A stretch of 64,000 nt of DNA from Eledone cirrhosa (lineage: Eukaryota). A model generated the notes under the pieces. It did no database searches and was not told where the DNA came from. It saw only the letters and a list, made by a program, of their open reading frames with translations. The stretch's first letter is position 1. Each line of letters starts with the position of its first letter. Position numbers and translations under genes: made by a program. The DNA lies in assembly GCA_964016885.1 (NCBI GenBank), contig OZ024740.1, positions 68,758,001 through 68,822,000 of the forward strand. Direction: 5' to 3'. Of the stretch, positions 1-58,325 are shown one piece after another.

Positions 1-1760
1 AGCAAAGACAAATAAGGTAATTTTGTAGAGACGACACTACATATATTGCTAATTCTTTTATGTAAAACTGGAATATATTTTGAGTTGAATTAAGTTTGTT
101 GATGTGCATAACACGTCTAAACAATAGATAAATCGTAACCAACTCTGAATAAGAATGGCTGGTCCCTCGATTGATTGACCACAATTTCATCTGTCTTGTG
201 CTTTTGTTCACGATATTAAAACTCACTCTTAAACATTATATCTACTTAAAGCAATGGCTGAGAGTTTATAACATATTTCCTCCATGTATCTCAGTTATTT
301 ATCGTTGCATTTAATTCTCTTAATAATTGATATAGCGACCGTATTAGGATCCGTTCTCTCCATATACGATTTGGCTTCCCTGTCCAAATATCATACCAAC
401 TACACACATTTTTGATAGACCAGATGTTGAACGTTTAATGAGTTGTTCATAAAATGATTAAAAATGTGTTATTTGCTGGTCATTTTCATAGATGTGTTAT
501 TTTAACTCTGTCAGTAAATTGTTTTCCAGTAATAAATCTCATTACAAAGTTACTGAAAAAATACGATCAAATTTTGAAACTATATTTACAGAGCAAGTGA
601 TACCATATTTTGTAAGCAAACTTTTGAAGTTCATCTTAAAATGGTAACTCTCGGGAAAATGAATTTTAACTTAGTTTACAAACTAACGGAACACATACTA
701 TTTTATACTGATCTTGTTGTTTACTACATTAATATTAAAATGTACCTTACAGATGTCGAACTTATATCCCCCGAGATATTTGGGAGTAAAGTCGTTTGGT
801 AATGCAAGCAATATATTGGAATATGTGAGGTATGGAATGTGAACAATTCGTTTATAACCAGACACTATATTCTTCTTCCTGCATTTATTTTACAGGAAAC
901 ATGTATTCAGTGTAATACATGAACTACTTTGCTTTCATCTAAAATGTTTGTTATCTGCCGATCTTCACTGTGCGCTTAGTATTGTATCGATTTAGGAGGC
1001 GGATATCCTCCCCAGACGGTTGATATGATCTCATCTCAGGGATAATAAACATTTCTTTTTGTAATAATTCAAATTGAAGCGAAGTTTCCATAGAAACCTT
1101 CAAAAATCATAACGTAAGATTTTTCTTGTATGTTTACTAATATTTAACATAGAATACAATGCGGTTAATGTATGCTAGAAAATATTTAGCAGTATATCAG
1201 CTCCTATGAAGAAATGTCGTTTGATGTCCTGTGACTCTAATCGGAAAATACTTTCTTTCCACAGAGTGAACTTTCAAAGTATTGTTGTAGACACTAAGAT
1301 ATATTTTCTTTTCATTTATCTTATGTATAATAAATACATAATTTATAGATATATACATATATACATTCACATACATGTATATATGCATACAAATACATAC
1401 AAATAAATATACGTACAACACACATGTATATATATATATATATTTTCGAATTGGTGCTCTGAAATAGCGATCTATATATATGTGAATGTATATATAGTGT
1501 ATTTTGCAATACACTGAATGCTTAATTAAAAGCATTTTGAAGACCTTATGCTATTGTTTTAAAGTAGTGACTATGTCACTTACTTCTTTTTTAACAAGGA
1601 AAGGGAAATAAGCTGATAGATCTCTGTTTCATACTGTTGGTATTCCCCAGAGCTTTGCATTCCAGTTGTTTGTTGAAAATTATGAATGTTTGAAACACAG
1701 ATCTGTCCGCTTATCTCCCTTTGTTTGTTGAAAATCAGAAGTGACATAGTGTTATATATA

Positions 1761-1988
1761 TAGAAGTAGTTCCACAACAGTTAGTTCACCATAACGAGAA
1801 CAAATGTATCACCTTATGCGGAGCTTCAGCTCGGTCTGAATGAGGTTATTTTTCAGACCGAGCTGAATATCCGCATAAGGTGAAACATTTGTTCTCGGTA
1901 TGGTGAATTAACTGTTGTGGAACTACTTCTACCAAACTCGTCCCATCGACTGATTGCTATCCTACTACAGATATACACTCCAGTGTTA
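1761..1988 (+). mobile_element. Palindromic pLTR-like relic with degenerate hammerhead motif in each arm
   Basis: Inverted repeat 1761-1931. The + arm reads CCGAG-CTGAATA-tccgcataaggt-GAAAC-ATTT-GTT-CTCGG (1858-1898). TA repeats flank both sides. Homologous to 9712-9897 and 57955-58030. Confidence 0.75.
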
Positions 1989-2094
1989 TATATATATATA
2001 TATACTGTTATATTTGGGGAGGGTCATATTGTTACAATATTGCCAGAAATAATAACAGAACAGACTCACTGTTTGTTTTGGGTTTGTTTTTGCT

Positions 2095-2128
<34 letters not shown>

Positions 2129-2810
2129 GCGTGTATGTGTGTGTGAGCGTATGTATATATATATTAATATAGATAGGCAGGAATAAATATCAATTGAGTA
2201 TCTTATACATTTTTCTTCACCCCTGGTGCCCTTTCTGCTGTCGATCAGCTCGAAGTTATAATTGCTCACGATCGGGCCTAGCTCTATAATTAATAGCTCA
2301 TTAGACTTTGAACATTGAAATATGGAGAGAAATCATTGTCATAGCATTATATATACGTGAAAAGCCCTCTCAGTACAAAGTCAGTTGTAGTATCAGATGC
2401 AGTGTTTAGTTTTGATAGATTGTGGTTCGATGGTGTTAATAATTATGTGCGACTGCAGCTACTACAATAACATAAACAAACACTTTACTAATAGAGATGT
2501 AAATGGATAAATGACAGTAATAATGAAATAATCGTAAATTGTGAAGAAAGAAAATTGTACATGATAAATAACGAGAATTTATAAAATATGAGAAAAAAGA
2601 TAAAGTCTGCAATTATTGTTCTTTATTAGTCTAATAATAGTATGATAAACAAATGTGTTTCTATATTTTATATGTGAATATTCTGAGGTCAGAGGAGTTG
2701 TATATTTATGTTAAATTCAAGAAATCTAGGTCGTTTTCGAGTTACCAACACCGTCCAGCACTAGAGTACTGGTGGCACCAACAACAACAATAACATCATT
2801 AACATTAATA

Positions 2811-3000
2811 ATTGTTTCTACTTTTGGAACAAGGCCAGCAATTATCCCAGTGTATTACTGGTACTTTATTTTTTCAAGCCCATAATGATGAAAGGCCAAG
2901 TTGACCTAGGCGGGATTTGAACATAGAACATAAAGGGCCGTAACTCTTTGCTGCAAAGCATGGCGTCCGACCCTCTACCGATATTGCCAATCCACCGCCC
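2811..3000 (-). mobile_element. tRNA-derived SINE (dispersed family)
   Basis: Minus strand has a tRNA-like head (GGCGGTGGATTGGCAATATCGGTAGAG...GTTCAAATCCCG), a central CCTTTCATC...AATAAAGTACCAG block and an (ATT)n-like tail. Copies at ~19795, 21779, 22893, 40248 and 50197-50910. Confidence 0.8.
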
Positions 3001-3171
3001 TTCATTAGCATTAATAATGATAATAACAACAAAATACATTCACAGCTGTGACAACCGGCGATGACACAATGAAGTGTATTACATCGATATCCTTATCTAC
3101 TATACGACATTGAGTGTGTAAGCTGAATGTTACACAACAAGGATATATATATATATATATATTTATATATA

Positions 3172-3266: not shown

Positions 3267-3269
<3 letters not shown>

Positions 3270-4083
3270 GAAGGATTTGAATGGATACAGTTCAGTAAAG
3301 GGAATTTATTGACACGTGTTTCAATAACAGTTAATAACCCGAAAACAGCTGCTATCTACAAAGTATTAATTATGCAGACATTCAATATGTCAATGTTATT
3401 TTCAACTACCATTTCATCAGAATAATATCATTGAGAACTTGTTTGGTTTTTATAGAGAATATTAAGAGGGAGGAGTGAAGTTGTTAGAAGAATAGTTAAG
3501 GGAGTTGATAGAAATGTTTGATAGCATTGGGTAATTAAATTCCCATCTGTTATTTTGTTAGTTGAGTTTGACATTTGTATAGAATATTCATTAATTGGCG
3601 TTGGTTGTATTGGTTATTTTTCTAAATCTATAGAAGGATCAGAGATAGTAAAGATATGCATGGTTGGTTTTGTGATTGCACTTAATTGACATACAGACTT
3701 AATTTTTCTTCCAAGTGTACGTATCCATTCGCCCACACATAAATATATGCGTATATATACTTATTTTTTTAAAAAACATACACATTCACACACATACATA
3801 TATGTACACCTCTACAAATACATACACTCACATACACATACTTACATGCTCACACTTACATACATATATACCTGTACATATATGTATATATATATATATA
3901 TATATACATATATATATGCACATACATACGCATTCATATATATACACTTTCATACTCTACTTATCTTCATATACACACAGATAGACACACACATATATAC
4001 ATACATACTCTTGTCCATGTGTATATATATATATATATAAATACACATATACATAACATACATACATTTAATTATACACATCA

Positions 4084-4118
<35 letters not shown>

Positions 4119-4605
4119 TCATCCACTTATTTACTTATTTATATACATTTTCATATATATACATACATATGGTCGCTTTTAGACACATTCATTATAGCAT
4201 ATTCGCACCTATTCTCACCAGCATATTTATCCATTATTAGTGTGATAATTTAAGGTTATTAATAGTACATATATATGTTGAGAAGAGATTGCTTTTATAT
4301 TTTTCTAACTAGATTGAGGATTTGTATAGTTGGGAGCATGTCCCTCGTTTATGTAATATTCAGCTTGTAGTGGGGAAAAAAGGGTTTTAGTTCGGTGACG
4401 GCAGAATAATGTTCGTTCAATTCTGTTATTAAGCAATTTCTTCTTTTGTGTGATTATCTAATAAATCTCAAGATTACATAATTTGCAGAAATGTTGGCTC
4501 CTGGGTTTTCACTAATTTCTCCCATTTTAGGGTAAACTTTTGATTGCTATCCCTGAGCGTCCAAGCTTTTTCTGCTAAAGTTGTTACATTTACAGTAAGA
4601 ATGCC
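3267..4605 (-). mobile_element. Inverted 5'-truncated copy of the Penelope-like element 3' region
   Basis: Reverse complement aligns by eye with ~6997-8375 (end of GIY-YIG ORF, 3'UTR, pLTR). Bounded on the left by (TA)n. Confidence 0.9.
3306..3425 (-). ncRNA. Type I hammerhead ribozyme (inverted pLTR copy)
   Basis: TTATT-CTGATGA-long stem II-GAAAC-ACGT-GTC-AATAA on the minus strand. Confidence 0.8.
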
Positions 4606-4624
4606 AAACAAGTTCTCAATGATA

Positions 4625-4746
4625 TTATTCTGATGAAATTGTAGTTGAAAGTAACATTGAAATATTGAATGTCTGCATAATTAATACATAATTAGATAGC
4701 AGCTGTTTTCAGGTTATTTAACTGTTATTGAAACACGTGTCAATAA
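4625..4746 (+). ncRNA. Type I hammerhead ribozyme in 5' pLTR
   Basis: Stem I TTATT/AATAA, core CTGATGA (4630-4636), stem II of ~93 nt, GAAAC-ACGT-GTC (4730-4741). Confidence 0.82.
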
Positions 4747-4948
4747 ATTCCTTTTACTGAACTGTATCCATTTAAATCCTTCTATTTTCTCCGGATTACT
4801 TTTGAAACTACAACTGGAACCGTCGATCAAACCCTACGTGAGCTGTCCATCTACTGTGTATAATATTCATATTACAACACTACGGATAATACTATATATT
4901 TACCTCCTGTAAAGTTGAGCCACCCACTCAGCAAACGTAACCACAACA

Positions 4949-7272
4949 ATGGAAAAGCACTACCTGGATATGTCACTTAAAAACATACCAACCCAAGGTA
5001 AAAAGGAATACTTATTGAGTATGATACAAAAAACAAACGAATTCATTCGACGTGTCAGGTGGAAAACGCTCCACTATGATAGAAGCCGTATGAACTCACC
5101 ATCAGAAAGTGGTGTAAACAACAAATTTGGTTTTAGAACGTGTAAAAACCCACCCACTAACCCACTATTAGATGCATTTGAGCAGGACCTTATGGACTTA
5201 ATCCTTAAAATTAAATTCAAAGGACGTAACACCAACAACAAACTGCAGATAGATATTAAAAAAACTACTGGACGACCTTAAAAACACCAAAGGAATTGTA
5301 GTAAAAGCGGACAAAACATCTAACCTGTACACTATGGACTGCACTACATATAAAAACTTCATTCGAAAAGAATTACATAAAAAATATAGAAAAACGAGTG
5401 AAGTAACCCTTAAGCACACCAATGATGAGGCATGTGAAATAGTGAAAAATCTCGGAATCGAAGATAGGACAGGACAACTCTTACCGGCGGTACGCACCTT
5501 CAATCTTAAGGACCATAAGGTAAACTTTGATAATGACCCTAAAATTAGACTAATCTGCACCTCTAAATCAGATATAGGTAAAATAAGCAAATATATCTTA
5601 GATAGAATGATCCCCCAAATTAAGGCTAAGGTTAACATTAAACTCTGGGGAAAGAGCCAAGAAGCAATAAGATGGTTTAATAGCATTAGCAATAAGAATA
5701 AATCTAAGTTTATCCAGTTCGATAGCGATCAATATTACTCATCGATATCACCTGAAACTCTGAATGGAGCCTTTGAGTTTGCTAAGGATAACTCTGACCT
5801 TACAAACCAAGAAATTAAGATTATATTAGAAGCTAGGAAAACTATAGTCAAATTTGAGAACAGTTATTGGGTTCGTAAAGATAGACCCTCCAACTTTGCC
5901 ATAACAATGGGCTCCAACGATTCGGCGGAAATAACCGATATTGTGGGGTTATTTATCGCCTTTAGACTCCAGGAAAAATTCAGTAATCTCCACGGTGGAA
6001 TCTACCGCGATGATGCTCTCCTCCTAGTTAAAAACCTAAGTAACCAAAAACTAGAAAAACTACGCAAATATATAAGAAAACTACTACTTGAAATAGGACT
6101 AACTATAATATATGAACACAACCTTAAAGTAGTTAACTTCCTGGATGTCACACTCAATTTAAACTCTGGTCTAATTAAACCGTTTCATGAATTGAATGAA
6201 AATCTCAAGTACGTGAATGTTGGGTCTAACCACCCCATTTTTATAATTAAATCTATCCCTAAAAATATTTCCCTCAGAATCTCGGGTCTATCTTCTAACA
6301 TACACGTACTTAAGGAACACGCCGAGTACTACGATAACGCCCTTAGTAAAGCAGGCTACCTCAACAAAATAGAATATATAGATTAAAACAATAAAAACAC
6401 CCAAAATAAATCCCACATAGGTAGAAATAATAACACAACACCAAACCAGACTTACTACCATAGTGTACACACCAATAAACCAAAAAACAAAACTAATAGA
6501 AAGCGATGCAAAGAGTACTTATGGTATAACCCAGAATACAATAGTTCCATTAGTACAAATTTTTCAGTACTCTTCTTTAAAATAGTTAAGAAACATTTTC
6601 CTACATCACACAAATACCACACAATCCTAAACCCTACCACTATAAGACTGTCATACTCTACAGCGTTAAACCTTGAACAACACATAAAAAAGATTAATAC
6701 TAGAAGGTTAAACGAAAACACTAAAAACTTAAGTACAAAGAGCACAAAAAAATCAGTAGACAATACACTACAGAACATAAATAAACCACACCTAAGTTCG
6801 TCCGCAATACTACTCCAGAATGAACCTAACTACAAAACCAACGTACACAACTGTAACTGCACCTATCCTGACAATTGCCCCCTTGGCAATAACTGCCTTG
6901 AAAAAAATATCATCTATAAGTGTACCATTGAATCCGGAGGCAACGAGTGGTATTACGTAGGATCAACGGCAACATCGTTTAAATCTCGATTATATAGGCA
7001 TTCTTACTCAATAAAACACCAGAGCCAAAGAAATGTAACAATTTTAGCAGAAAAAGCTTGGACGCTCAGGGATAGCAATCAAAAGTTTACCCTAAAATGG
7101 GAGAAATTAGCAAAATCCCTATGCTTTTCCAGGAGCCAAAAATTTCTGCAAATTATGTAATCTTGAGATTTATTACATAATCATACACAAGAAGAAATTG
7201 CTTAATAACAGAATTGAACGAACATTATTCTGCCGTCACCGAACTAAAACTCTTTTTCCCACTACAAGCTGA
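4949..7272 (+). pseudogene. Penelope-like RT + GIY-YIG endonuclease ORF, disrupted
   Basis: Motifs in order: SLKNIP..FIRRVRWK, KADK (after a frameshift at the A-run ~5260), MGS, YRDD, FLDVTL, SNHP. An in-frame TAA at 6384 is followed by WYNPEY, CNC..CPL..CL..NIIY..YYVG (GIY-YIG). A second frameshift near 7120 precedes CKLC..CRH. Confidence 0.92.
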
Positions 7273-7585
7273 ATATTACATAAACGAGGGACATCCTCCC
7301 AACTAGACAAATCCTCAATCTAGTTAGAAAAATATAAAAACAATCTCTTCTCAACATATATATGTACTATTAATAACCTTAAATTATCACACTAATAATG
7401 GATAAATATGCTGGTGAGAATAGGTGCGAATATGCTATAATGAATGTGTCTAAAAGCGACCATATGTCTGTATATATGTGAAAATGTATATAAATAAGTA
7501 AATAAGTGGGTGAGTGTATATATGTATATATATATATATATGTTTGATGTGTATAATTAAATGTATGTGTGTTCATGTATATGTG

Positions 7586-7630
<45 letters not shown>

Positions 7631-8217
7631 ACACACATGGACAAGAGTATGTATGTATATATGTGTGTGTCTATATGTGTGTATATGAAGATAAGTAGAG
7701 TATGAAAGTGTATATAGATGAATGCGTATGTATGTACATATATATATGTATATATATATATATATGTACAGGTATATATGTATGTAAGTATGAGCATGTA
7801 AGGATGTGTATGTGAGTGTATGTATTTGTAGAGGTGTACATATATGTATGTTTGTGAATGTGTATGTTTTTAAAAAAATAAGTATATATACGCATATATT
7901 TATGTGTGGGCGAACGGATACGTACACTTGAAAGAAAAATTTAAGTCTGTATTTGAATTAAGTGCAAACACAACACCAACCATGCATATCTTTACTATCT
8001 CTAATCCTTCTATAGATTTAGAAAAATAACCAATACAACCAACGCCAAATAATGATTATTCTATAAAAATGTCAAACTCAACTAACAAAATAACAGATGT
8101 GAATCTAATTACCCACTGCTATCAAAAATTTATATCCACTCCCTTAACTATTCTTCTAACAACTTCTCTCCTCCCTCTTAATATTCTCTATAAAAACCTA
8201 ACAAGTTCTCAATGATA

Positions 8218-8338
8218 TTATTCTGATGAAATGGTAGTTGAAAATAACATTGAAATATTGAATGCCTGCATAATTAATACTTTGTAGATAGCAGCTGTTT
8301 TCAGGTCATTTAACTGTTATTGAAACACGTGTCAATGA
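8218..8338 (+). ncRNA. Type I hammerhead ribozyme in 3' pLTR
   Basis: TTATT-CTGATGA...GAAAC-ACGT-GTC-AATGA. Confidence 0.8.
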
Positions 8339-8481
8339 ATTCTTTTTACTAAACTGCATCCATCTAAATATTTTTATTTTCTCCGGATTACTTTTGAAAC
8401 TACAACTGGAACCGTCGAGCAAACCCTACGTGAGCTGTCCATCTACTGTGTATAATATTCATATTACAACACTACGGATAA

Positions 8482-8519
<38 letters not shown>

Positions 8520-9149: not shown

Positions 9150-9435
<286 letters not shown>

Positions 9436-9643
9436 TTGCGAGGTTTTTTATATGAAATCGCGTGTCGAAACAGATATTGTTATATTTGGGGAGGGTCAGT
9501 CAATGGCAACATTGAGGACCGAGTAAGTTAGATCGCAGATATATATATATAAAAGACAGCGAGAAGCGAAAACCAACCAAACAGTGAGTGTGTTCTGTTA
9601 TTAATTCTGGCAATATTACGCAAATATGACCCTCCCCAAATAT

Positions 9644-9711: not shown

Positions 9712-9714
<3 letters not shown>

Positions 9715-9893
9715 GTGGTAGAACACTGGAACGTAATATCCGTAGTGGTAGAGCACTTAGTCCATTGGACGAGTTAGGTAGAAGTGGTTACACAACAGTT
9801 AGTTCAGCATACCGAGAACAATAGCGGATCCTCAGCTCGTAATCGGATTACGAGCTGAGGATCCGCTAAGGTAACACGATTGTTCTCGGTATA

Positions 9894-9897
<4 letters not shown>
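9712..9897 (-). mobile_element. Palindromic pLTR-like relic (same family as 1761)
   Basis: Fold-back centred near 9845 with CGAG-CTGAGGA-TCCG in both arms. TA flanks. Confidence 0.7.
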
Positions 9898-19049: not shown

Positions 19050-20851
19050 CGTGTGTGCGTGTATGAAAATGTTTATATATACATATATAATTCTATAATA
19101 ATGATAAAACCTAACCTATATTGCCTACCGTTTCGACTCTTACCTAAACTCTTCAACGTATATGTATATAACTCTATCTAGATTTACCATATTTAAAATG
19201 GACGTAGATTAATCAAAATCCTGTCCTTAGATGGTTGGGATATAGAATAGCAGACTGGAATATATTTGGCCTTTGGCTTGCCTTTGTATTCTGTGTAATT
19301 CTAGTCTGTACTGTTTCTTGTTGATTTTTTTTTTTTCGTAAATACAATTACAGTTTTAAATATAGCATGATATATTCATAGTCTTGACTATCGTTTGAAA
19401 AATATGATTGTCATTGTTTTTACACAAAAATAGAAACCACATATTGTGTGACTGTGCAGTCAAGTGTTTCGACTGTGCAATCAAGTGTTTCGCTTCACAG
19501 CCACGTAGTTTAGAATTCAGTCACAATGCCTGACACCAAGCTTTCAGTCACTCTAAGCTTTGTGAATGCAATTGGGTAGACGAAAAACACTTTGGAAGCC
19601 CATATCTTAACCCTAACCCTGTAATTTAAAGTACCAAACTTGTCATTACTTGAGCCGCGTTAAATCCATTGAATATCAATTTAATGTTACTCGTTGATTC
19701 ATGAGCATGCGATTCCATTCATCGAAAAATAAGAATTCTTTTCGTCGAAACCGTCTGATGTCCATTCCCTTTAATGGGAATGGTCATCAGACGGTTTTTG
19801 AACTCAGATCGTTAAAGGACGTAACTATGCTGGAAAGCATGGCGTCCGACCTTCTACCGATACTGCCAATCCACCGCCCTTGTTTATGAATATAACGTTT
19901 AACAATCGGCGATGCTTATTGCACGAAAATTAGAGGTTCAATAAAACGAGATCAATAAAATAAATAGCAAAGTTTTGAAACCGGTTCAAATGAACATTGA
20001 AAGCACTATTCGTCGCAGTCTAAAACAAGAAAATAGTAAAATAGTAAAATTTTAGAAGAGCGATACTTCACATATAGGTCGATGGATGAGTCAAAAGAAA
20101 AATGAGAAATGTCCACTAATCTAAATTCACAATGAGGTTTGACTTCCATTTATCAAGCCAGTAACATTAAGAATGATCCTATGATAATTATGCAAGTGCA
20201 TGCCAATCATGCATATATCCCGAATGTAAACAAGTAGACCCCTTCCTAACAAGACATATATTTGTTTACACTTGTTCAGTGATGCATTAAACTCATGAGA
20301 CGCTTCTTCCACACGAATACCCTTGAGAAACATAACAACTGCCTATTTCCGGCATCTTGAAATACACTCCATTGTACATTGTCAGACTAAAAGAAAAAAG
20401 TTCAAAATATTGAAATTTAAGAGGAATCAACCAATACAGATGTCTTGAGGCATGAGTAAAGTCATTTCACATCACTTTAAAAAAATGGTATACTTAAAAA
20501 CACATTAACATGATATCTGATCACTCTTCATTAAATGCCTATGGCATTGTATCTAATGACAAATAATAATTCAGATCATTTAAATACAAGTGTTTTGGGA
20601 TTTTGAAATAAATACGTAAAGAAGAAATATATATATATATATAGGTGTGTGTGTGTGTGTATGTGTGTGTGGGGGACAAGATTCAGGACCCCGATGGCTG
20701 AGATCCGGCCTTTTCGACAGTTAGAAGCTTTTCATATTACCCACTATACTACACCAAATATTGAGTACTCTAGTGGGTTATGGTCCACCTGGTACTTTAC
20801 CACACCCATTATGACACACACACACACACACACACATATATATGCATATAT

Positions 20852-21290
20852 ATATTCAATGATATTAAATAAATGGAAACGATATTTATAAAACCATGTT
20901 TATTTATTATATATATTTCTAGGGTACCAAAACTTTGGTATGCTCTCATCAGATAAAATACAAATTTTGTTTTATAAATATTGACATAACCAGGAAAAAA
21001 TACCTTAACGGTTCAAGTGTTTCCTGGATAAACTTGAACCGTTACGGTATTTTTTCCTGGTTATGTCAATGTTTAAAAAACAGACTTTGTATTTTGTCTG
21101 ATCAGACCGTACCAAAGTGTTGTTACCCTTGAAATATATATAATATAATAAATATGGTTTTATAAATATACTTTCTATTTATTTAATATCATTGAATATT
21201 ATACTCCAGAAAACATGTCGAGTGCTTTGAATCAGTTATAAACATTTATATTTGTTGAATTACCAACAAATTGAATAGCCCTTTTTCTTA
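20852..21290 (+). mobile_element. Fold-back pLTR-like unit with two opposed hammerheads
   Basis: Palindrome 20852-21198. Minus arm TTTAT-CTGATGA...GAAA-TATATA-TA-ATAAA (20903-20957). The plus arm core is CTGATCA. Confidence 0.8.
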
Positions 21291-21354: not shown

Positions 21355-21525
21355 CATATATATATATATATATATAGGGTCATATATATATATATAGGGT
21401 CAATAAGAAACACATGCACCAGAGGTGGTGTGTTTCTTATTGGCAACATGACCCCTCCAAAGTATAACAATATCGGTTTCAACACTCATTTTCAGATAAA
21501 GAATCTTGCTAAACAAATTCAGAAA

Positions 21526-21563
<38 letters not shown>

Positions 21564-24377: not shown

Positions 24378-24577
24378 TATATTATAAAGAACGAGGAATC
24401 GGTGTTGCATCATCTCACATTTATTAACATATTTAATAACATATGTAATATGTTAATAAATGTGAGATGATGCAATACTGGTTCCTCGTTCTTTTATATT
24501 ATTATACTCAGCTCTGCGCGACCATCGAGTGCTCAACAGGCATACCGCCTACCGACGCATTTACGTTGCAACTACAA
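24378..24577 (+). mobile_element. Fold-back pLTR-like unit lacking the ribozyme
   Basis: Palindrome ~24378-24500, then TACTCAG...CATCGAGTGCTC, ending in TA repeats. Confidence 0.65.
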
Positions 24578-24640: not shown

Positions 24641-24836
24641 GGAGAGAGAGAGAAGGGGGCGGGGTAGATTAATTATTTTCTTGAATTGTCGAACATAAGA
24701 TTTAATGCTGAAATTAATGAGTTTGAATATTTTTTACAAATAGTTATTTACTATATTTATCTGAAAGTAAATATTCAATATATGTAAATAACTGTTTACA
24801 TTTTATTTATTTAATTAATTACTTTTTCAATTTCAG

Positions 24837-25458
24837 GAAGAAAATGCCAGCAACCATAGAGGGTCAAATGACGATAGAGAAGACTCCAAGTTATTTCATT
24901 ACAAAAGACGTACCAAGAAGAATATATAACATGTCAAAAAACATGAAAATCCTCATAATAGTTCGTGATCCAGTAACACGGGCTATCTCTGATTACACAC
25001 AATTGGCTTCCAAAGGAATTACTAAGCTACATCGTTTTGAAGACTTAGCATTTCTTAATCTGTCAACTCGCATTGTCGATACGAGTAGAAATATCATTCG
25101 TATAGGTGTTTACGCGAAATATCTAGAACGTTGGCTGCATTACTTTCCCTTGTCACAAATCCATTTTGTGAGTGGGGAACAATTGATATCAGATCCAGCT
25201 CGAGAACTCGGTCGTGTTCAAGATTTTCTAGGTTTAAAACGGATCATTTCGGAAAAGCATTTCTATTTCAATGAAACAAAAGGATTTCCTTGTTTGAAAA
25301 AATCGGAAGGAAGCGGTCACCCTCATTGCTTAGGCAAAACGAAAGGAAGACCACATCCAACAGTTGACATAACAATACTCAAACGACTCAGAGATTTTTA
25401 TCGACCATTTAACGAGAAGTTTTATCGCATGGTAAACAGAGATTTTCGATGGCCGTAA
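24837..25458 (+). CDS. HS3ST: Heparan sulfate glucosamine 3-O-sulfotransferase (HS3ST2/3/4/6-, Hs3st-B-like), terminal coding exon
   Basis: Intact frame with EKTPSYF, 3'-PB motif [44 protein letters not shown] and FYRPFN. Polypyrimidine + TTTCAG acceptor just before 24837. Confidence 0.95.
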
Positions 25459-28020: not shown

Positions 28021-28030
<10 letters not shown>

Positions 28031-28535
28031 ATCAAAAGATGGTTAAAAGAGTTCCATGTATTTTATTATGCGCATTTCAAAAACAAATATCATCATGCAA
28101 TAACATTTGTGTTTTCATCAGATAAAATAGGAAGACATGATATAAAGGTTAAACAACAATTGTGAATAGTGTAGTTTTAAATCAACATATGAAAAGTAGT
28201 TTTAGATTGATGTGTGATATTGGGAAAAAAAAAATGTGTTTCCCAATATCACACATCAATCTAAAACTACTTTTCATATGTTGATTTAAAACTGCACTAT
28301 TCACAAGTGTTTTTTAACCTTCATATCATGTCTTCCTATTTTATCTCATGAAAACACAAATGTTATTGCATGATGATATCTGTTTTTGAAATGCGCATAA
28401 TAAAATACATGGAACTCTTTTAAACATCTTTTGATCTTATATATTATGTATACTCCAGTCCTACAAACTGTAGAGTGCTTCTTATCCGATATCTGCATTG
28501 CTTTACTGTACTACAATAAAACTCACCTCCTACAT
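28021..28535 (+). mobile_element. Fold-back pLTR-like unit with two opposed hammerheads
   Basis: ~420 bp palindrome centred near 28233. Minus arm TATTTTAT-CTGATGA...GAAA-TGCGCA-TA-ATAAAATA (28059-28129). The plus arm core is CTCATGA. Confidence 0.85.
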
Positions 28536-29173: not shown

Positions 29174-30015
29174 ATTTAGTACAGCATCATCGAAGCTCTA
29201 GTTGCACCCAAGCTAACGAATGCAGTCGGGGTGTTCAGATAAGCACTCAATAAGATATATTACCTTAGAGATATATCATTGCGTTTAGACAGCTTTGCAA
29301 ATTGTAAAGAGCGACCGATAGACGAGCCGCAGTGACCGAAGCGACGAAAAAAACTGAACTCAGGAAAATCTGACAAACCTGGACCATCGCATCCATACCA
29401 TATATAACACGTAACATATAACATATAATATATAATATACATCACATATAACATATAATACCTCCGTTAGGTTTCTGTAAATCGGAAATCGACAAAATCC
29501 ACTGCAAGTTATTGGATTTGGAAGATAAAACAGTGGAATTTACTTCGTCAACAAGTGTTTTGTTCTAGTCCGCCCGTTTCCGATTAGATAGCAGTAAACA
29601 CTGCTGGTAGGCACATGGTTTTCCCGAAGGTAAGTAACCCCCGGTATTGGCGGTCAAATTAAAATTTTGAACAAAGGAATAAATTCCTTTACACAAACCG
29701 AATAAAGCACTCAACTAGAAGCTATTAAACTAACATAAACAATTAACCAATCAATAGAATTCTGTAATTAAATTAATCAATTAATCGTTAATTCTAGGAG
29801 ATAATAATACAATTATATATATATATATATATTTCGTTCCTGAATTTGTATAGCAAGATTCTTTATCTGAAAACGTTTGTTGAAACCGATATTGTTATGT
29901 TTTGGGAGGATCATGTTGCCAATTCCTAAATTTATAAATTTAATTTATAATAAATTGAAGTGAAAGCAATTGTGCGTGTGTTTCTTATTGGCAACATGAC
30001 CCTCCCAAAGCATAA

Positions 30016-30136
<121 letters not shown>

Positions 30137-30752: not shown

Positions 30753-30913
30753 AAGAATGAGAAATAAAATAGAATATATATATATATTCATATATATATA
30801 TATAAGAAACACACGCACCAGTTGCCTTCATTTCAATGTATTATAAATTAAATTTATAAATTTAGGAATTTATAAATTTCCGGTTGGTTGCACAAGACGA
30901 TTGTTCAAATATT

Positions 30914-30956
30914 GTCAAAGTTCTTTCGTCACACATTCTGTGACCTCTTCAGTGAC
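30914..30956 (-). ncRNA. Minimal type I hammerhead
   Basis: GTCA-CTGAAGA-gGTCACA-gaatg-TGTGAC-GAAA-GAAC-TT-TGAC. Homologue at 54524-54568. Confidence 0.65.
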
Positions 30957-31284
30957 TGGGGACATGACCTTCCCAAAGCATAACAACATCTAAAGTCCAA
31001 AGAGGGCTCGATAGGGATAAATATATATCAAATATATAAGAACCGCAGAGCAAATATTTACTGAAATAACAGATTCAAGTTTAAGCAAAGAATCGCTGCT
31101 TTCACCCTTAATAGGATCTTCTGAAACTAACAAAGTCAATATTTGAACGCAGAAGTGAATATTTCAAAAAACGTTGCAAGCGGGGGAAGAGAGGAATACG
31201 ATACTTTGGTTCGTGGGAACGTTCCCTGGCAAAGAATGGGAAAAAAACGAATATAATACGTCATTATTTAGAGCGGTGTTCAAA

Positions 31285-33670
31285 TCCCGGTTCAGCTTAG
31301 CCCCTGTAAACCTTTCGTACTCCTCCAGGAAGGTGCCGATCGCCCCGATTTCCGAGGTCGTCGACACCATTACTATTACGTCATCGGCGTAGGCTGACAC
31401 CGCTTTCCGCAATCCCGGTTCCAACGGGATGCCCTGCAACAACTCCAACTTCCGCAGCAGTGGCTCTAGAGTCATTACATACAGAAGGGAGGAGAGAGGG
31501 CACCCTTGTCGGATGGACCGCGCGATTTCGAACGATTCCGAGAGGTAGCCGTTCACTTTGACCCTAGAGCAGATGCGGCTGCTGTACATGGCATTGATCC
31601 AGCCCCTGAAAACGGGTCCGAAGCCTGCCGCCGCTAGCACCGCATCCAGGTAACCATGGTCGACCCTATCGAATGCCTTAGATTGATCCATGTTGATCAG
31701 GGCCCCACCAAAGCCGGGTTCGTTCCCAACCCTCTCTATGATGTATCGCATGAGGTGGAGATTGTCGTGGATGGACCTGGACGGGATAGCACATGTCTGC
31801 GCATCTCCCACCAGGTTGCCCACGACAAGCGCCAACCTCTTTGCTAGCACCTTGGCCAAAACCTGTAACTCTGTATTTAGCAGAGTTATGGGCCTGAAAT
31901 TATTTATATCGTCCCCCTTGTTCTCGTCCTTCCTCACTAGCGTGACTACGCCCTTGGTCACAGCACAGGGAATTCTCCCGTTCTGTTGCCAGTTGCAGTA
32001 GACCGCCTCGAGGAGATCGGGGAACAAGTCCGGCATAGCTAGATATAGTTCGTATGGAAGACCATCGAGACCCGGGGATTTGCGTTTGCCGCATTGGCTC
32101 AGCACGTCCTCTATCTCAGCGACTGAAATCGGCTCCTCGCAGGACTTCGCCTCCCTGTCCGAGAGACACGGCAGGCCGTCGAGGTATGGACCGAAGTCCA
32201 CATCCCCAGCCAGCCCCCCGCCCCTTCCGAACAATCCGGCAAAGTGCTTTTGAAAAGCCTCGCACACCTGCTTAGGTTCAAGGATCACCCGTCCATCCTG
32301 GTCTCGCAAAGACCGGATAGTGAATCTGCTCCCTCTTTTGGCTTCTGTCACGCGGGCCCAGCTAACAGCTTTGGTCCCCTCGTTTCCCAGAGCACGTATT
32401 TTGTTTTGGACGATGCAGCCTTCGTGTTTCGCGTCGAAGAACTGGCCCAGGGCCGTTCTCGACGCTAGCACTCTGGCCACGTCGCCGCTTCTAATTGCCT
32501 CTTCTACACTATCTACCGACTCCCTTTCCTTCCTGTTTCTATTAGAGGCTAACTCCTTACTAAATTCTATAGAGACTACTCTAATCTCTCTTTTGAGAGA
32601 TCCCCACCACCTGCTGTTGACGTTGGCGCCCTTCAACCGCTCCTTAACTAAAGTGCTAATCCGGTCCCTGTAAGCCTTACTTGCCGGTAAGGACAAGTTG
32701 AGCTTCCAGTAACCGGGTCCCTGTCTATGAGTTCTGTCAAGGTTGACCATGCAGGTCACTAACTTATGGTCTGAATAGCCAACCATGCGCATTTTTGGAC
32801 AACTTAAAAAGTCCGTATCCTTAATTCTAACTAAGAACCTATCTAGGTACGACCTAGATGATCCGTTACGATTTGCCCAAGTCCAGGTTGGCGCATTCGG
32901 AAAATCTAGTCGATATCTATCGGCCAGGTCAGATCGACCGATTAACCCTTTGAAGCTATTGCACCGCTCTCTATCGAAACAGGCCCCTACGTAGTCCCAG
33001 CGTGCATCTAGGATACCATTCCAGTCCCCAACTAATAGCAAGGAGCGGGACGTCCCTAGAAAAGTCTCCAGACGATGGAAGAAGTCCGGCCGCATTGACC
33101 CGAAAGGGCCGTAGGCGGCTACCAACCTAAACGCTCCGCCTTCACCACTGCCAAGGTCCAGAACCACTAGTCGACCCTCCGGGTCCAAATGTACCATCTA
33201 TGTTGCGAGACCCAGATGTTTTTGCAGCAGAACGACAAACCCACCCCCACTCCGGGCTGACAGAGAGATGCGTGCATCTCAAAGTCATCAAAGGTGGGGG
33301 CCAGCTGTCGCACGTTGCTGATCCGGGCCTCGCAAATAACCATCACATCTATACGTTGTGATCTGAGGTCATTTAGAAGCATTGCTTGCTTCCAAGTTGA
33401 GCCCAGGCCACGCGCATTTAAACAGCCTACTCTTAGCATAGCCATGTTTGTGGTGAAGATAAAAGGCACTTACCTCTCTGCGTCCCGAGTATCGGGCTGC
33501 ACAATTTCCATGAGGGTGGGGGATGTGTTGGTGGGTGGGGTGGTGGTTTCTGGCGGGGTGGGAACGGAGGTGTTTGGTGGGGAAGGGATGTCTGGTGGGG
33601 TGGGGATGACTTGGGTGGGGAAGCCTTTGTAGAGGACGCGGTTGATTTGATAGATAGATGGATAAATATA
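31285..33670 (-). mobile_element. Tx1/L1-clade LINE fragment (ORF1 end + ORF2 APE-RT), 3'-truncated
   Basis: GCLNARGL (ATG ~33445), GDWNG, SYLDRF, SDHK, GYWKLN, KSPGLDGLP, FRPITLLN, DQSKAFDRV, RQGCPLS, YADD. Long ORF 31164-33197, whose last ~40 codons are unrelated sequence. Confidence 0.92.
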
Positions 33671-36224: not shown

Positions 36225-36344
36225 GGAAAAAGTATTGAGCTCTGCCGTGGGGTCATACTTTTTCCTATTTCCCAGTCTACTACCCTAAGTATTGAGTACT
36301 CTGGTGCGATATGATCAATCCGGTTCCTTACCACAATTCCTTTG

Positions 36345-36385
<41 letters not shown>

Positions 36386-36562
36386 AACAAGTAAGAGCCC
36401 GACGGCTGAGCTCAAACCGTTTCGACAGAATTAGCCGTCGAAACGGCTTGAGCTCAGCCGTCGGAGTCTTACTTGTTCCTATTACCCACTCTACTACCCT
36501 AAGTATTGAGTACTTTGGTGCGTTTTGGTCCACCTGGTTCCTTACCACATTTCCTTCGTTAT
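36222..36562 (+). mobile_element. Two short fold-back pLTR-like units in (TA)n
   Basis: Units 36222-36348 and 36381-36562 share a 3' segment. Palindrome 36381-36482 contains a hammerhead 3' half, GAAAC-GGCT..AGCC-GTC. Third family member at ~20672-20810. Confidence 0.7.
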
Positions 36563-40454: not shown

Positions 40455-43400
40455 TATAATGATAATAATAGTAATAATAATAATAAGAAGAAGAAGAAGA
40501 ATGATAATAATGATTTCTTTATTGGCCACAAGGGCTGACACGAAGAAAAACATTAAAGACGGCACAGAACAGTACGATACAAAGTGGGTTTTGGTCGTGT
40601 GAACAGGTTATAACAAAATCGGGCAAGATATCCAAAAACATTCAAACAACAAAATTCACCAAGAAGGGGGAAACACTCCATGGGTCACTCGTGGTGAAAA
40701 CCACACAAAAGACCACGGCCACCCTGACCACCAGGGCATGTGCCCTCTCTCACTTTTCCCACTCTTCAGTCTACAGGCGTATACTCAGAGCTGCCCCGTC
40801 ACTCGGACCAGACTCGCCACTTTCAACCACCTTTCAACAAACTTACTAGAAGACAGCACTTAACTTTCCACCCTGATTTTCCTCTTCAAGTGAAACAGGG
40901 ATTGGCCCGAGAGGAAAGTGTCCGTCTTCAACCCTTTCAATCTTGTCCACCACACAATCTCTTTCGCACTGGCCACCAGTTAGATGAAAACTCCCCTGCC
41001 CTTCCTCCTCTTGAAAGGAGGATGGCGAGGCTATCTGCACAATGGACTCAGTCGATAACCGGATCCGTCCTACACGCGAAAGCAGCTCTTCGACATAGCT
41101 CCACAAGTCAGCAATCCTCGGGCACTGAACGAGTGCGTGCAGGACGGTTTCGTCGCCCTCGCGCATCTCGGACAGGCTCGGCTGACAGCAGCTCCGTGTC
41201 TGTAGAGCTTATCCCGAACCGGCAACGCTCCCCAGTAGCACTGCCAGGCCAGGGATTTCTGGAAGTTGTCTATAGGCCCCGGTACGAAAGTTCTCTTGAA
41301 GAGAGCGAACAGCTGATCTTCTTCGACGCCCAGGGTCTCCCTGAGAACGTCGTCGCTCATTCCCTCCACTAGCACTCTATAGAACGCCGAGGTGGATGTT
41401 CCATCGATACTAGTGCCCAGCCGGCAGAGGGCGGTGAGTGTTTGGAGACATTCCAGCTTCCAAGCACTATCCCTCAGTCTTTTCCTGATCCAGGACAGCA
41501 GCTCCGTCAAGGAGAACAGCTGGGGAAAAGCGCGTTTGGAAAACGGCGACCACACCTGTTCACCGTCAAGGAAGCACCAGAGATGTTGCATCCTCAGCGC
41601 ATGTTTGCGCATCGTCAGCCACGGCATGCCTTGTCCTCCACGCAACGGGTGTTGCAGCAAATGGATCGTCTGACCATGGGAGCGCGTCCCTTCCACAAAG
41701 AGCGGAAGAGAAGCCACTCCATTTTGATCAGAGTTGGGCGGGGGCAAGGTACGACGGTCAGGCGGTAGCAGATGACGGACTCTATGTACGCATTCGCCAC
41801 CTCCGCCCGACCTTTCAGAGACAGCCTCTTCTCGGTCCATTTCTGGGTGAGAGAGGCCACCCTGCTCGTCATCTCGCTCCAGTTTTTCTCCCCCTCGAGG
41901 TCCGGACCGAACCAGACCCCGAGCAATTTAACTGGTCCTTCCGTCCAGTGCCCCGCGACGCTGTCGGAGGGTATGGACTTGCCTCTCCAGGTACTGAGTT
42001 GCAAGCCCACCGACTTTTCCTGGGTTATCTTCGCTCTTGACACCGATTCGTATTCCTTGAGAGCGGTGCCCAGCATCTGGACGTGTTTGATGCTCGACAC
42101 CACCACGGTGACGTCGTCGGCGTAAGCTGACACAGATTTCCCGCATCCCATTTCGCGTTGAACCGCTCTCATCGTCTCCAATTTATGTAGTAAAGGCTCT
42201 AGGGCCAGTACGTACAAGAGGGACGAGAGGAGTCAACCCTGGCGTACGGAGCGCATGATGCTGAAAGGCTGTGACAGGTGACCATTCACCCTCACAATCG
42301 AGCAGATGTCGCTGTGCATCGCAACGATCGAGCCAAAAAAAACGTGCCCGAAGCCGGCCGCCTCGAGGACTGCATCTAGGTACCGATGGTCGACCCTATC
42401 AAATGATTTAGATTGATCCAAGTTGATCAGGGCCCCACCCGTACCAGGTTCCTTAACCACCCTCTCTATGATGTATCACATGAGATGGAGGTTGTCGTGG
42501 ATGGATCTGTCCGGGGTGAGCATGTCTGCGCCTCTCCCACCAGATCACCGACGACACGCGCTAATCTCTTTGCTAACATCTTGGTCAAAATCTTAAACTC
42601 TGAGTTTAGCAGAGTTGGGGCCTGAAGTTGTCTATAAGGTCCCCCTTGTTCGGGTCTTTTCTCAGCAGCGCCCCCGTTCTCCGGCTCACAAAACTGGGAA
42701 TGCTCTCGTTCTGCTGCCAGTTGCAGTAGACATCGGCCAAGAGGTCGCCGAACAAGTCTGGCATATACGCAAAAAGTTCGTAGGGCAGACCATTCGAACC
42801 TAGCGATTTACACCTCATGCAGTCAGACATCGCGCCCCGTATTTCACCTGCTGTTATCGGCTTTTCGCAGGACTGCACTGCGGTCGTCGAGGGCCGCGGC
42901 AGTCCGTCGAGGTATACACCGAAGTCCATACCCCGATCCGGCCCGCCGCTGCTCCCGAACAATTGGTCAAAGTGCTGTTGAAAAGCCGCAAACATCTGCT
43001 CGGGTTCAAGCAACATGCGCCCGTTTTGACCAGGCAAAGACCGAATTGTGGACTTGTTGCCACGTCGTGCCCTCACCACCCGGGCCTATTCAACGGCTTT
43101 CGTCCTCTCGTGTCTTAGAGCACGCGTTCTAGCTCTGACAGCGCAGCCTTCATGCTTTGCGTTGAAGAATTAGTCGAGTGCCAATCTCGCCGCAAGCACG
43201 TCGGTTGCGATTCCTGTCCTAAACGCCTCTTCTAGCCTTCTAACTAACTCTACCTCTACTCTATTTTCCTCTATCACTACTCTTTTGCTAAACATTATCG
43301 ATTATACTCTAATAGCCCTTTCCAGGGTAAACCGCCATCTGTTGTTGACGATCGCACCCGTCAACGTACGCTTAACTAATTCGCTAACCCGGTCTCTGTA

Positions 43401-46050
43401 AGCTTTGCGCACCGGGAAATACGCGTTCAGCTTCCAGTAGCCGGGCCCTTGCCTATGGAGTCTATCTAAGTCAACTTCACAGATCATAATTTTGTGGTTC
43501 CTGTAGTCGACTACTTTAAATTGTGGACAACCTACACCAGCCTTATCTGTTTCCCTACAGAATACCCTATCTAAATACGATCTGGAGTACCCGATGCTGT
43601 TTGCCCATGTCCACTTTGGCACATTCGGATAAACCAGTCTATACCTGTCCGACAGTTCAAAACGTCTGAGCAGGTTGTTTGGGCTTTTACACTCTCCTCC
43701 CCTGTCTACTAGCCCCACATAATCCCAGCGCACATCTGAAATACCATTCCAGTCACCCACTAACACTAAAGAGCGGGACGTTCCAAGAGAGGTCTCTAGA
43801 CGTTTGAAAAAATTCGGCCATCCTGCCTCTGTTGGAACGTTGACGGCTACTAACCTGAAAGCATTGCCTTCGCTGCCAGCCACGTCCAACACTACCAACT
43901 TACCTTCTGGCTCCAGGAAGATGGCCCGTATGGCGAGATCCAAGCCTCTCCGAAAAGACACGGCAACTCACCCACCCCGATCCTGGACGGCTGGGAGATG
44001 CGTATACATCGTAGCCGCCGAAGATCGGTGCGAGGGCTCGTGCTTCGGAGATTCTGGTCTCGCTGATGGCCACCACATCTATGTTTAGTGACCTGAGGTC
44101 GTTGAGCAGGTGACCCTGCTTCCAAGATGACCCCAGGCCACGTACATTTATACTGCCTATTCTAAGTAAGGTCATGTTTGATGTGAAATGGGCTAAGTGA
44201 GAAAGGATCACTTACCTTGTTCGTGTGGTGAAGGGAAAGTAGAACCGTCCCTTTGGCTGGTCATGGGTGTTTTCAAGAGGATGTCGGTGTATATCCTTTT
44301 GGTAACCCACCCTCTGAAGTCTCCAACTGCGTTTCTAATATTCTATTTTGATTTCAATGATGTTTATGTTTGTCGGGAGAGTTCTTGGTGTTGGTGGTGT
44401 GTAGTAATTTTGTTCTGTGATGTTTGTATGCTGCTTTATATGTTGTAAGAGTCCTTTATTTTCCATGTTTATGGCTGTGTACTTTTTGAAGGAGGGGGTG
44501 ATTTTGTTGCTGTTTTCTTGTTGATGCTGTTGGGTGTGTGTTTTTTAATACGTTTGCGATGTTGGTGTATTTGGTGATGTTGGTGGTGGCGTGGTTGTTG
44601 TTGGTAGTGATGGTTGTGGTGGTAATGGTGATGGTTGTGGTGTTCCTGCAAGTCTCCTTGCAGCCTTTACCCCGTTTTGTTTCCCTTCGCTTTTGGAGGG
44701 TGAAGCGAAGGGTTTTTTCCTTTGTTGATTTTTTGTGGCAGACCGTTTCCCAATTCCCTCCCGCCTCATACTCCATGTCGGATTTCCTGCCGTCTGGCAG
44801 AGTATGAGCTACAATGCTGTTGATGGTGGTAGTGGAGCCCGCTCCGGGGATTTTGCCGCCGGTGTAGCTACTGCGACTGTTGGTGTTTCCGCCACTACTG
44901 CCGCTGTTTTAGTTGTCCGTGGTCTTGGTATGGGTGCCACGGACGTTGTCCTCCTACTCACCATGGAAGGGTATTCTGCCTCTGTTGCCTGCCCTGCTCT
45001 CGGTAGCAGCGGATCAGGCGTCGGAAGAAGGTGCGGGCTCTTCTTGGCTGTCTTCTGCGGGCAGAACCCTGAGGTGACATTTCTGCCCACATATATAACA
45101 CTTTGGGCGCCATCCTTCCACGCTTATAGGGAGTTGGAGTCCTTCTTCGAGGTCTATGATATCTGGGATGGCCTCGATGCACTCCTGGTCAGTCTGTACT
45201 AGCATGTGCATGCCTATTCCTGACCAGTTCTCTCTTCCCATTCTCCGTATTTGCAGTATGGTGGTGTTCTCCTCGATTCCAGCCAGTACAGAAGACGCGA
45301 CCAGCCAAGGTATGGGTACGTCGGGCGGGACCTGGGTCACTTTGACCCTCACAATTTTCTACTCGCATTACGAGGGCACCAAGACTATCTCCTCACTCAT
45401 TAGGGTTTCCAAAGAGTGAGACTTCGCCTCTTGGGGGGTGGCGAAAAGTACGTCTAATGTGGCGTACTTTTTGTCACTGAGCGCAGCTGCTGGTCATTGA
45501 AGAAATCCGGTGGAGGTTTCAGGGAAACTATTTTTATTCCTTGTCACCATGGCTCGTGCGACTGCCATCTCCTCTTCCGTGACTAGCACTGTCTCTATAT
45601 TTCGGGCCACACCTGCGAAAGAAATGGTCCCTTTTTCAGCGGCACTATTATTGCTGCCGCTACTGCTGCTACTGGTCTTGTTGTTGGTGCTGTTGCTGTT
45701 GCTATTGTTACAAACGGTGTTGTTGGTATTGTTGATGTTATCACTGGTGTAGTTGGTTGTGTTTTTGGTGCTATTTGTATTGTTGCTGTTGGTGTTGTCG
45801 TTGATTATTTTCTTGTTAGTTGTGTTAATATCGTTGTTGCATTTGTTCTCATTTTTTTCTGTTGCCTGTAATTTTGTTGACGCCGCTATTGTTGTAGTTG
45901 GTGTGGTAATTTTTCCTAAATTAGTGTTCTCATTTTGTCTTTTTTCACGTTGTTTGTGGTGGTGTTTGTTGTATGAATTTCACTAACCCACTTCTCAACT
46001 TTTACGGCGTTGTCACACGACAGCAGACATATTGCTAGGGGGCATGGCTC
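40455..46050 (-). mobile_element. Near-full-length Tx1/L1-clade LINE, disrupted
   Basis: ORF1 remnants include zinc knuckle CYICGQKCH (~45075-45100). ORF2 from ~44175: GSINVRGL, GDWNG, GYWKLN, NLDQSKSFDRV, YADD, CPRC..ETVLHALVQC. The 3' end is GGCCAATAAAGAAAT + (TTA)n-like tail. Confidence 0.92.
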
Positions 46051-49200: not shown

Positions 49201-49600
49201 CGGGAAATACAGTCTGTACCTGTCACACATTTGGAAGCGTCGGATCAGGTTTGCGAGGATTTTACCCCCACATGCCGTATCACCTAGCAGACACAGCTCC
49301 AGCGGGATCAACGAGACCTTTCCAGTCGCCCACTAACAGTAAAGAGAGTGACTTCCCTAGAAATGTCTACTGGCATTTGAAGAAATTAGTTTGTCCCATA
49401 GACTTCGACTAGCTAAAAGGCCTACCCTTTGTTGGTGGCTGCGTCCAGCTCAATGGCTTACATTCTGGGTCAAGGAAGATCCATGCCTTTTCAGAACACC
49501 ACAGCATCTCCTCCTCCAGGTCCCGGGCGGCTTGTTGTTGCGAACACCTCGTAGCCGAAGAAAAATGACTGGTTTGCCGGCTGGCTAGCACGTGTATTTG
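46300..49600 (-). mobile_element. Two decayed Tx1/L1-clade LINE fragments in tandem
   Basis: Same 3' terminus (CCTTGTGGCCAAT + TTA repeat) at ~46300-46340. The RT segment around NLDQSK occurs twice (~47350 and ~48060). APE remnants at 49000-49500. Confidence 0.8.

Positions 49601-54724: not shown

Positions 54725-54759
<35 letters not shown>

Positions 54760-58277: not shown

Positions 58278-58321
<44 letters not shown>

Positions 58322-58325
<4 letters not shown>

Follow-up and report, generated by a model that had tools for sequence, protein, structure and literature searches.

Penelope-like elements (PLEs) are the closest mobile relatives of telomerase. RNA stem-loops that recruit a reverse transcriptase (RT) include the 3' stem-loops of L2/CR1-type LINEs and SINEs, hepadnavirus epsilon and the template-flanking elements of telomerase RNA. 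PLEs of the Hydra clade were described, in the portion of PMC8557442 used here, as encoding an RT followed by a GIY-YIG endonuclease with the motifs RWK, DKT and CxCx5C, and as having a hammerhead in the pLTR, a (TA)n target, an inverted 5'-truncated copy and an optional tail at either end. In the Poseidon element PAc of Anolis carolinensis, both strands are nicked and extended, two internal RT starts bracket the tail, RNA located 3' of the start is needed, and a dimer is predicted (PMC11167929, in part). Insertions in Adineta vaga carry head-to-head inverted pLTRs with a tail on one of them, which was explained by self-priming on an antisense template (PMC3846280, in part). How PLEs choose their start sites and how tails and inverted ends are formed was stated to be open in both PMC8557442 and PMC11167929.

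PLEs and fold-backs in the window

The window, that is, the whole stretch of 64,000 nucleotides analyzed, comes from a 3.0-Gb, AT-rich genome in which (TA)n is abundant, and (TA)n is the insertion target of the PLE families in it. Two coding PLEs are present, at 4949-7160 (+) and, as a remnant, at 61778-63433 (-). The features are listed below by family (A to I); hairpin 1 and hairpin 2 denote two copies of one motif.

21203-21225 (+): family A hairpin 1, the finding of this work; basal ACTC/GAGT, upper stem CAG/CTG in most copies with one substitution here, TC bulge
20852-21199: family A fold-back, an inverted tail-less arm plus a direct arm; arm homology stops 4 nt before CTC
21098-21135 (+): hammerhead core-like motif CUGAnnAG...GAAA in the family A pLTR; pattern only, no Rfam hammerhead match
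21200-21287 (+): family A tail, with (TA)n at its end
24378-24575 (+): family B fold-back with tail; hairpin 1 at 24506-24532, the family stem TGCTC/GAGCA decayed in this copy
28022-28532 (+): family C fold-back with tail; hairpin 1 at 28452-28478, CAGT/ACTG, TA bulge
36381-36558 (+): family D fold-back with tail; hairpin 1 at 36488-36513, TACT/AGTA, TT bulge
36274-36299 and 20743-20768: hairpin 1 in other family D copies
1761-1985 (+): family E fold-back with tail; hairpin 1 at 1936-1957, family stem GTCC/GGAC, 1-nt bulge, decayed here
9712-9897 (-): family E relative; hairpin 1 at 9753-9774, inverted arm about 36 nt short
3267-4591 (-): family G inverted tail-less arm, beginning in (TA)n 3 nt before the hairpin position
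4604-4892 (+): family G 5' pLTR; hammerhead-like core at 4630-4741, hairpin 1 at 4788-4830, tail
4903-4920 (+): family G hairpin 2, just beyond the TATATAT that joins tailed ends to target and 46 nt before the ATG
4949-7160 (+): family G ORF, RT plus C-terminal GIY-YIG, broken by a frameshift near 5255 and a stop at 6384-6386; RWK, DKT, CxCx5C
8197-8484 (+): family G 3' pLTR; hairpin 1 at 8380-8422, tail ending in (TA)n
59442-59620 (-): family F 3' end, with hairpin 1 at 59479-59530 (long loop; upper stem TGT/ACA in most copies), the tail and (TA)n
61778-62518 (-): family F endonuclease remnant with Hydra-type linker
58319-59423 (-): family H, tandem unit of about 690 bp lacking any ORF of 150 aa; hairpins 1 and 2 at 58965-59006 and 58860-58877, respectively; one end, at 58319, without a tail, and an inverted tailed arm (hairpin 59353-59394) that stops early at an internal ATATAT
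9246-9292 (+), 31004-31051 (-) and near 58105 (-): ends of a further repeat family bearing the motif with a weak upper stem
21424-21527, 29834-30021, 54628-54726, 9433-9498 and 30802-30962: family I

Domain order and motifs suggest that family G is a Hydra-clade PLE. Its window copy is broken, and an intact counterpart (locus L227) is a single 773-aa ORF with the RT followed by a C-terminal GIY-YIG domain. Family G carries RWK and DKT; among 121 aligned relatives, RW[KR] was found in 106, DK[TS] in 119, the CxCx5-6C linker in 109 and a C-terminal CxLC in 115, and a CCHH finger is absent from the endonuclease as judged by eye. A Pfam match to GIY-YIG was weak for family F (E 0.004) and lacking for family G. 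An assignment to Naiad/Chlamys PLEs was rejected because the endonuclease is C-terminal, not N-terminal, and a MITE or TIR DNA transposon was rejected because the ends are asymmetric and the centres vary among copies. Hydra-type coding sequence lies upstream of families C, E, F and G and of a relative of A, and a parent ORF was sought for families B, D, H and I and not found. The earlier note had placed the hairpin in unrelated families; all those that can be tied to a protein appear to be Hydra-clade PLEs.

Hammerhead-type patterns (CUGAnGA plus GAAAY) occur in families A, E and G and in 51 metagenome 3' ends, as patterns only, Rfam giving no hammerhead match. One named homolog is from Argonauta, and a cephalopod host is likely. 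Many family G copies have 785-aa open frames, suggesting that the family is young and a candidate for in vitro work. A scan of viral contigs found no relatives. Some Hydra-type PLE loci (L343-L354) sit in contigs filed as bacterial MAGs, most likely through host contamination. Within the RT region of family F, a 350-bp palindrome (62963-63313) is an inversion inside coding sequence. The window also contains an ORF with a sulfotransferase domain (24727-25458, +; PF00685, E 7e-27), probably a host exon, and fragments of AP-endonuclease/RT non-LTR retrotransposons (31164-33457, 41070-44187 and 46630-49387, -) that are unrelated to the hairpin.

A bulged hairpin with a covarying upper stem

The hairpins described in the earlier note for families A to F and for the family E relative are all present, that of the family E fold-back in decayed form. 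Their structure, taken there as a simple hairpin, is a two-part stem: RCTC on the 5' side, a stem-loop of 2-5 bp, a bulge of 1-2 nt on the 3' side whose first base is U, and GAGY. The basal CTC/GAG is constant across families. The upper stems are all different and yet paired: CAG/CTG (A), TGCTC/GAGCA (B), CAGT/ACTG (C), TACT/AGTA (D), GTCC/GGAC (E), TGT/ACA (F) and CGG/CCG (G). The family G pLTRs, in an element (4604-8494) where no clear motif had been seen, carry it at both ends. Taken by itself, the pattern ACTC-N(4-20)-GAGT shows no clear enrichment in the window (15 matches against 9.1 expected, with 15 reached in 5 of 100 shuffles), suggesting that the signal lies in position plus structure. 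In a search of Rfam 15, in which a 25-nt motif could be missed, the hairpins were unmatched at E<=1; the only matches overall were microsatellite-driven, miRNA-like and below gathering scores.

Pairing was analyzed in an independent set made of 50 database relatives aligned with the family G protein and 89 loci from metagenome and MAG contigs. The hairpin was found in 42 of 58 non-redundant leaders of other organisms (5 on the reverse strand, 3.9 in shuffles) and in 32 of 51 post-hammerhead regions (12 and 6.1, respectively). Among 84 distinct instances picked by sequence-only anchors, the bulge was TT in 53, TC in 17, TA in 10 and other in 4. Watson-Crick pairs occurred at upper-stem positions 1 to 3 in 76/84, 52/84 and 42/70 instances, compared with permuted means of 43.5, 25.0 and 18.2 (maxima 58, 39 and 31), in permutation tests that ignore relatedness among families. 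Position 4 was marginal (20/41 paired, 10.5 permuted, maximum 21), and position 5 was not above chance. In a MAFFT alignment of 61 of the 93 short-loop instances, 95.7% of cells were paired, both sides changed in 5 of 8 pairs, and covariation was 0.109, a value that none of 500 shuffles reached (0.037 in shuffled alignments; slid controls at most 0.060). Since the CTC/GAG pairs never vary, covariation is limited to the upper stem and the outer pair. The covariation proposed earlier as a check on the hairpin was thus found.

A covariance model built only from loci of other organisms was run on the window, where seven PLE tail hairpins topped the 12 matches at E<=10. The family A hairpin was the second-best match (E 0.023) and one of only two under E 1. 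When longer flanks were included, minimum-energy folding failed to recover the hairpin in most of the single family copies tried. In the published Hydra consensi, as far as PMC8557442 was covered, the motif is clear by eye in three of six (Hydra-2_Amil, Hydra-2_Ajap and, twice, Hydra-1_Ajap), occurs as a variant in Hydra-1_Crog and was not seen in Hydra-1_Amil or Hydra-1_Obim. These data support the conclusion that the motif is a conserved, covarying cis-element tied to the end-point of the arm.

Hairpins and the ends of insertions

In the five window palindromes, the distance from the end of the inverted arm to the C of CTC is 4 (A), 12 (B), 8 (C), 6 (D) and 5 (E) nt, and (TA)n begins again 50-104 nt past the hairpin start. 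The claim that the inverted arm stops just before the hairpin was therefore borne out, as was the exception at 9712-9897. The claim that only one arm carries the final stretch held for these palindromes, but in ORF-bearing insertions the tail can lie on either arm.

For each window unit, the first look gave 431-3038 candidate family members, and the best 15-20 copies per family were used. This set of 114 loci from seven families, 60 of them with the inverted arm within the locus, includes the window copies and one duplicated pair (L027/L028) and was found with tail-bearing queries. When arm ends were called automatically, 47 of the 58 tail-less arms ended 3-12 nt ahead of the C of CTC; the remaining 11 were called 14-30 nt early, and two other arms scored as tailed. 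Several of the 11 scored short because of a substitution near the end, and the true early ends among them were L067 and window 9712. Tails on both arms were seen in three insertions, and one insertion tailed on both arms (L024/L029) had been mis-scored as tail-less. By family values judged by eye, the junction typically lies 3-9 nt from the hairpin (SD 2.0) and 38-64 nt from the hammerhead (SD 8.9).

We also screened 80 genome stretches of 10 kb (800 kb), chosen regardless of the motif. The screen gave 172 inverted repeats, of which 66 (61 deduplicated) had one outer end on (TA)n, 3 had both and 103 neither. Of the 61 lopsided fold-backs, 21 had a match to a strict descriptor at 0-15 nt from the arm end, more than expected by chance (shuffles mean 0.4, maximum 2), compared with 2 on the reverse strand, 2, 2 and 0 in later intervals, and 7 of 206 ends off (TA)n. 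With a looser descriptor, 27 of the 61 had a match that began 2-14 nt beyond the short arm (shuffles 0.7, maximum 3), leaving 34 of 61 units without the motif near the arm end; both descriptors were written after the window families were known, and the 61 units include several copies of the same families.

Loci from other organisms gave 19 repeat pairs. Nine diverged 3-9 nt before a hairpin (seven before hairpin 1, two likely before hairpin 2), two diverged elsewhere, four reached contig ends, three showed no divergence and one was uninformative; that is, 9 of 11 usable junctions lay at this distance. In one metagenome locus (L290), the element end before hairpin 1 joins (TTTA)n with an ATATTT-like match at the junction, where target repeat and template tract may co-vary. 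At nine loci (L361, L362, L366, L374, L378, L042, L053, L091 and L250), a (CT)n run that extends the element's CTCT lies between the element end and (TA)n; such runs could reflect reiterative copying at initiation or later slippage.

Fold-back centres vary from copy to copy, suggesting that each insertion was formed anew; copying of a whole palindrome from one master was rejected for the same reason. A single-base difference between arms recurs in family C (-29, 7 of 10 copies) and in family D (-24, 8 of 11 copies). It probably reflects the picking of copies most like the window arm, and two different templates could also be its source.

The motif is duplicated. In the family G window element, the 5' pLTR is followed by the tail, TATATAT, a second motif copy and the ATG, and the order pLTR, hairpin 1, tail, hairpin 2, ORF was found in 31 of 40 ORF-picked family G loci. 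Two copies also occur in families C (leader L064) and H as well as in two further leaders, L191 and L145; in L041 and L176 the motif is present only as hairpin 2. The motif was counted in 43 metagenome leaders that were 170 nt or longer: 25 had two copies, 2 had three, 11 had one and 5 had none, with a spacing between copies of mostly 55-83 nt. By eye, the published Hydra-1_Ajap consensus (PMC8557442, in part) has a pair of such hairpins at its start and terminates immediately ahead of the first of them.

Insertion ends in the 40 family G loci fell at two sites. One precedes hairpin 1 by 3-4 nt, the other precedes hairpin 2 by about 4 nt, and both lie within short TA tracts. Among the 16 insertions with both ends resolved, the tail was on the inverted arm only in eight, on the direct end only in seven, on neither in one and on both in none; three of the 40 loci had been chosen for an already seen tailed inverted arm, which touches the 8:7 split and leaves the coupling of the two ends unaffected. 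The other loci were one tandem without resolved ends, 21 without an inverted arm in view and two with the inverted arm only. Of the 21 copies without a visible inverted arm, 16 were tail-less and 5 tailed. With hairpin 2 just beyond the tailed end, these copies make it too narrow to say, as had been proposed, that the motif only fixes where the second arm is resolved.

Family H, used as a test of this end rule, is a retrozyme-like unit with both hairpins, also found as a four-unit tandem (L370-L372). As the rule predicts, its tailed ends lay 8-12 nt before hairpin 2 in 7 of 8 cases, the miss being the window copy, which ends about 70 nt before hairpin 2; 6 of 25 loci gave no result for the anchor used. 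In the window, the family F end abuts the shortened family H tail at the internal ATATAT. Exactly one tail per insertion with both ends resolved was thus found in 15/16 (G) and 6/6 (H), 21/22 in total (binomial 5e-6 versus 0.5).

The earlier description of the motif as a cross-family element stands in part. The motif occurs in families A to H and in other organisms but is not universal: family I, also in the window, consists of (TA)n fold-backs that have a tail of about 60 nt on one side and lack the RCTC/GAGY hairpin. In 30 family I loci, the inverted partners were tail-less in 11 cases and tailed in 1. This one-tail layout suggests that the motif represents no more than the version, found in the Hydra clade, of a broader two-start design.

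Proposed initiation at twin hairpins and comparison with known systems

We propose, with a probability of about 0.7 and from sequence comparisons, that each hairpin positions RT initiation on one strand of a nicked (TA)n, that the tail equals the hairpin spacing and that the cDNAs are joined head to head. The twin hairpins between the hammerhead motif and the ORF would be putative RNA binding sites that position the element's RT. The endonuclease would nick both strands of (TA)n; of the two 3'-OH ends, one would prime ahead of hairpin 1 and the other ahead of hairpin 2 on a single RNA, frequently with TA pairing over a few bases, and each RT would copy away from its own hairpin, which would explain why the short arm lacks hairpin 1 and why no insertion end contains hairpin 2. 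These cDNAs would then join at their stop points, giving a fold-back with a variable centre and one tail. A two-protomer complex would be the simplest, hypothetical form of this mechanism. Because an RT reads RNA 3' to 5', element sequence 3' of the first copied base would not be copied, which fits the missing hairpins. The template would have to hold both hairpins 3' of the copied sequence and thus might be a read-through tandem transcript or a hammerhead-derived circle. As to the earlier choice between RT recognition and endonuclease nicking, the evidence favors the positioning of RT initiation, short of proving it.

We consider it unlikely that the motif acts in DNA, with the GIY-YIG endonuclease recognizing a cDNA hairpin or duplex site, cutting at a distance of a few bases and so trimming or resolving ends that had already been copied. 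As antisense DNA the stem folds stably, and sense RNA, antisense RNA and antisense DNA stems fold about equally; the tail was ascribed to EN-mediated resolution in PMC8557442, and the endonuclease of D. virilis Penelope needs the tail for recognition according to earlier work related in PMC11167929 (both in part). However, hairpin 2 would then need to be copied and afterwards removed from every tailed end, and the tail lies on either arm of family G about equally (8 vs. 7). Moreover, PAc start sites mapped in vitro agree with its genomic ends (PMC11167929, in part), and internal mismatches in the stem lean weakly toward the sense strand (G-U 9, A-C 4). That the hairpins instead direct RNA cleavage or 3'-end formation just upstream, the two RNA 3' ends being then copied by 3'-end TPRT, seems to us very unlikely. 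It would account for ends that are precise within a family and for the AATAAA that several families have a few tens of bases upstream of their inner junction, in AT-rich sequence, but no poly(A) was seen at junctions in the family loci examined, PAc initiates internally on unprocessed RNA (PMC11167929, in part), and two independent RNA species alone would not yield one tail in 21 of 22 insertions.

The least probable of these alternatives is that the hairpins serve the 5' leader, in transcription or translation, and that ends lie nearby only through annealing of TA tracts to (TA)n. The ATG does lie about 34-70 nt beyond the start of hairpin 2, TA is most frequent at 6 nt ahead of the stem (34 of 80 instances), rare ends lie at other TA tracts (L067 and window 59423), and family I shares the end pattern without the motif. 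Against this, family H has no long ORF and still retains both hairpins with ends before each, and the TA tracts within the family G tail were unused as ends in all 40 loci. Of 38 inner junctions, 25 had a TA overlap of 1-5 nt and 13 had none; these 13 hold the hairpin distance all the same, and the metagenome element that stops before hairpin 1 does so in a (TTTA)n target. Initiation of the RT just before each hairpin remains the reading that we prefer.

It is possible, although we lean slightly against it, that the twin hairpin is a clade-wide RNA code by which two RTs on one template would use telomerase-like short pairing to a doubly nicked (TA)n. Such a code would explain the PLE tail and the head-to-head inverted ends in one mechanism, would provide internal initiation by a telomerase-related RT with a minimal, portable signal, and would account for trans-mobilisation of non-coding derivatives. 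A covarying motif of 20-50 nt that predicts both insertion ends makes the start-site question testable with stem-swap and spacing mutants, and it supplies a rule for the boundaries of Hydra elements in repeat curation.

The clade, the tail, the inverted arms and the two start sites had already been published, and the twin-hairpin motif is new within the literature covered: neither the motif nor its duplication is described there, Repbase entries, subscription journals, the figures of PMC11167929 and preprint supplements lying outside that coverage. The window PLEs share with the Hydra clade of PMC8557442 the domain order, RWK/DKT/CxCx5C, the (TA)n target and the inverted copy, with the hammerhead here a pattern only. 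The tails are non-coding leader of about 55-115 nt, whereas 30-40 nt was given in PMC8557442, which in the portion used describes no stem-loop at the tail. Adineta vaga insertions likewise have inverted pLTRs and one tail, with no tail hairpin named in the covered part of PMC3846280.

The proposed two-start layout bracketing the tail is shared with PAc, whose starts were shown in vitro. PAc belongs to a different clade, and its start, which is said to lack homology to the target, lies within the ORF in an AC-rich stem-loop; the part of PMC11167929 used reports no signal that is repeated, conserved and covarying, whereas here each proposed start has its own motif copy, often with a short TA overlap. 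By eye, the PAc RNA in that source has a 3'-bulged stem-loop that begins a few bases past the mapped +111-118 start, in the required region.

Family H resembles the non-LTR retrozymes (bioRxiv 10.64898/2026.07.22.740005) in being a tandem, hammerhead-motif-bearing, apparently non-coding PLE derivative; the portion of that text covered mentions no hairpin, stem-loop or tail. The retention of both hairpins in family H would explain its mobilisation in trans. The RT-recruiting stem-loops of LINEs and SINEs, hepadnaviruses and telomerase RNA are likewise small structured RNAs that set an RT start, but they are single, whereas here a tandem pair lies 3' of the internal start.
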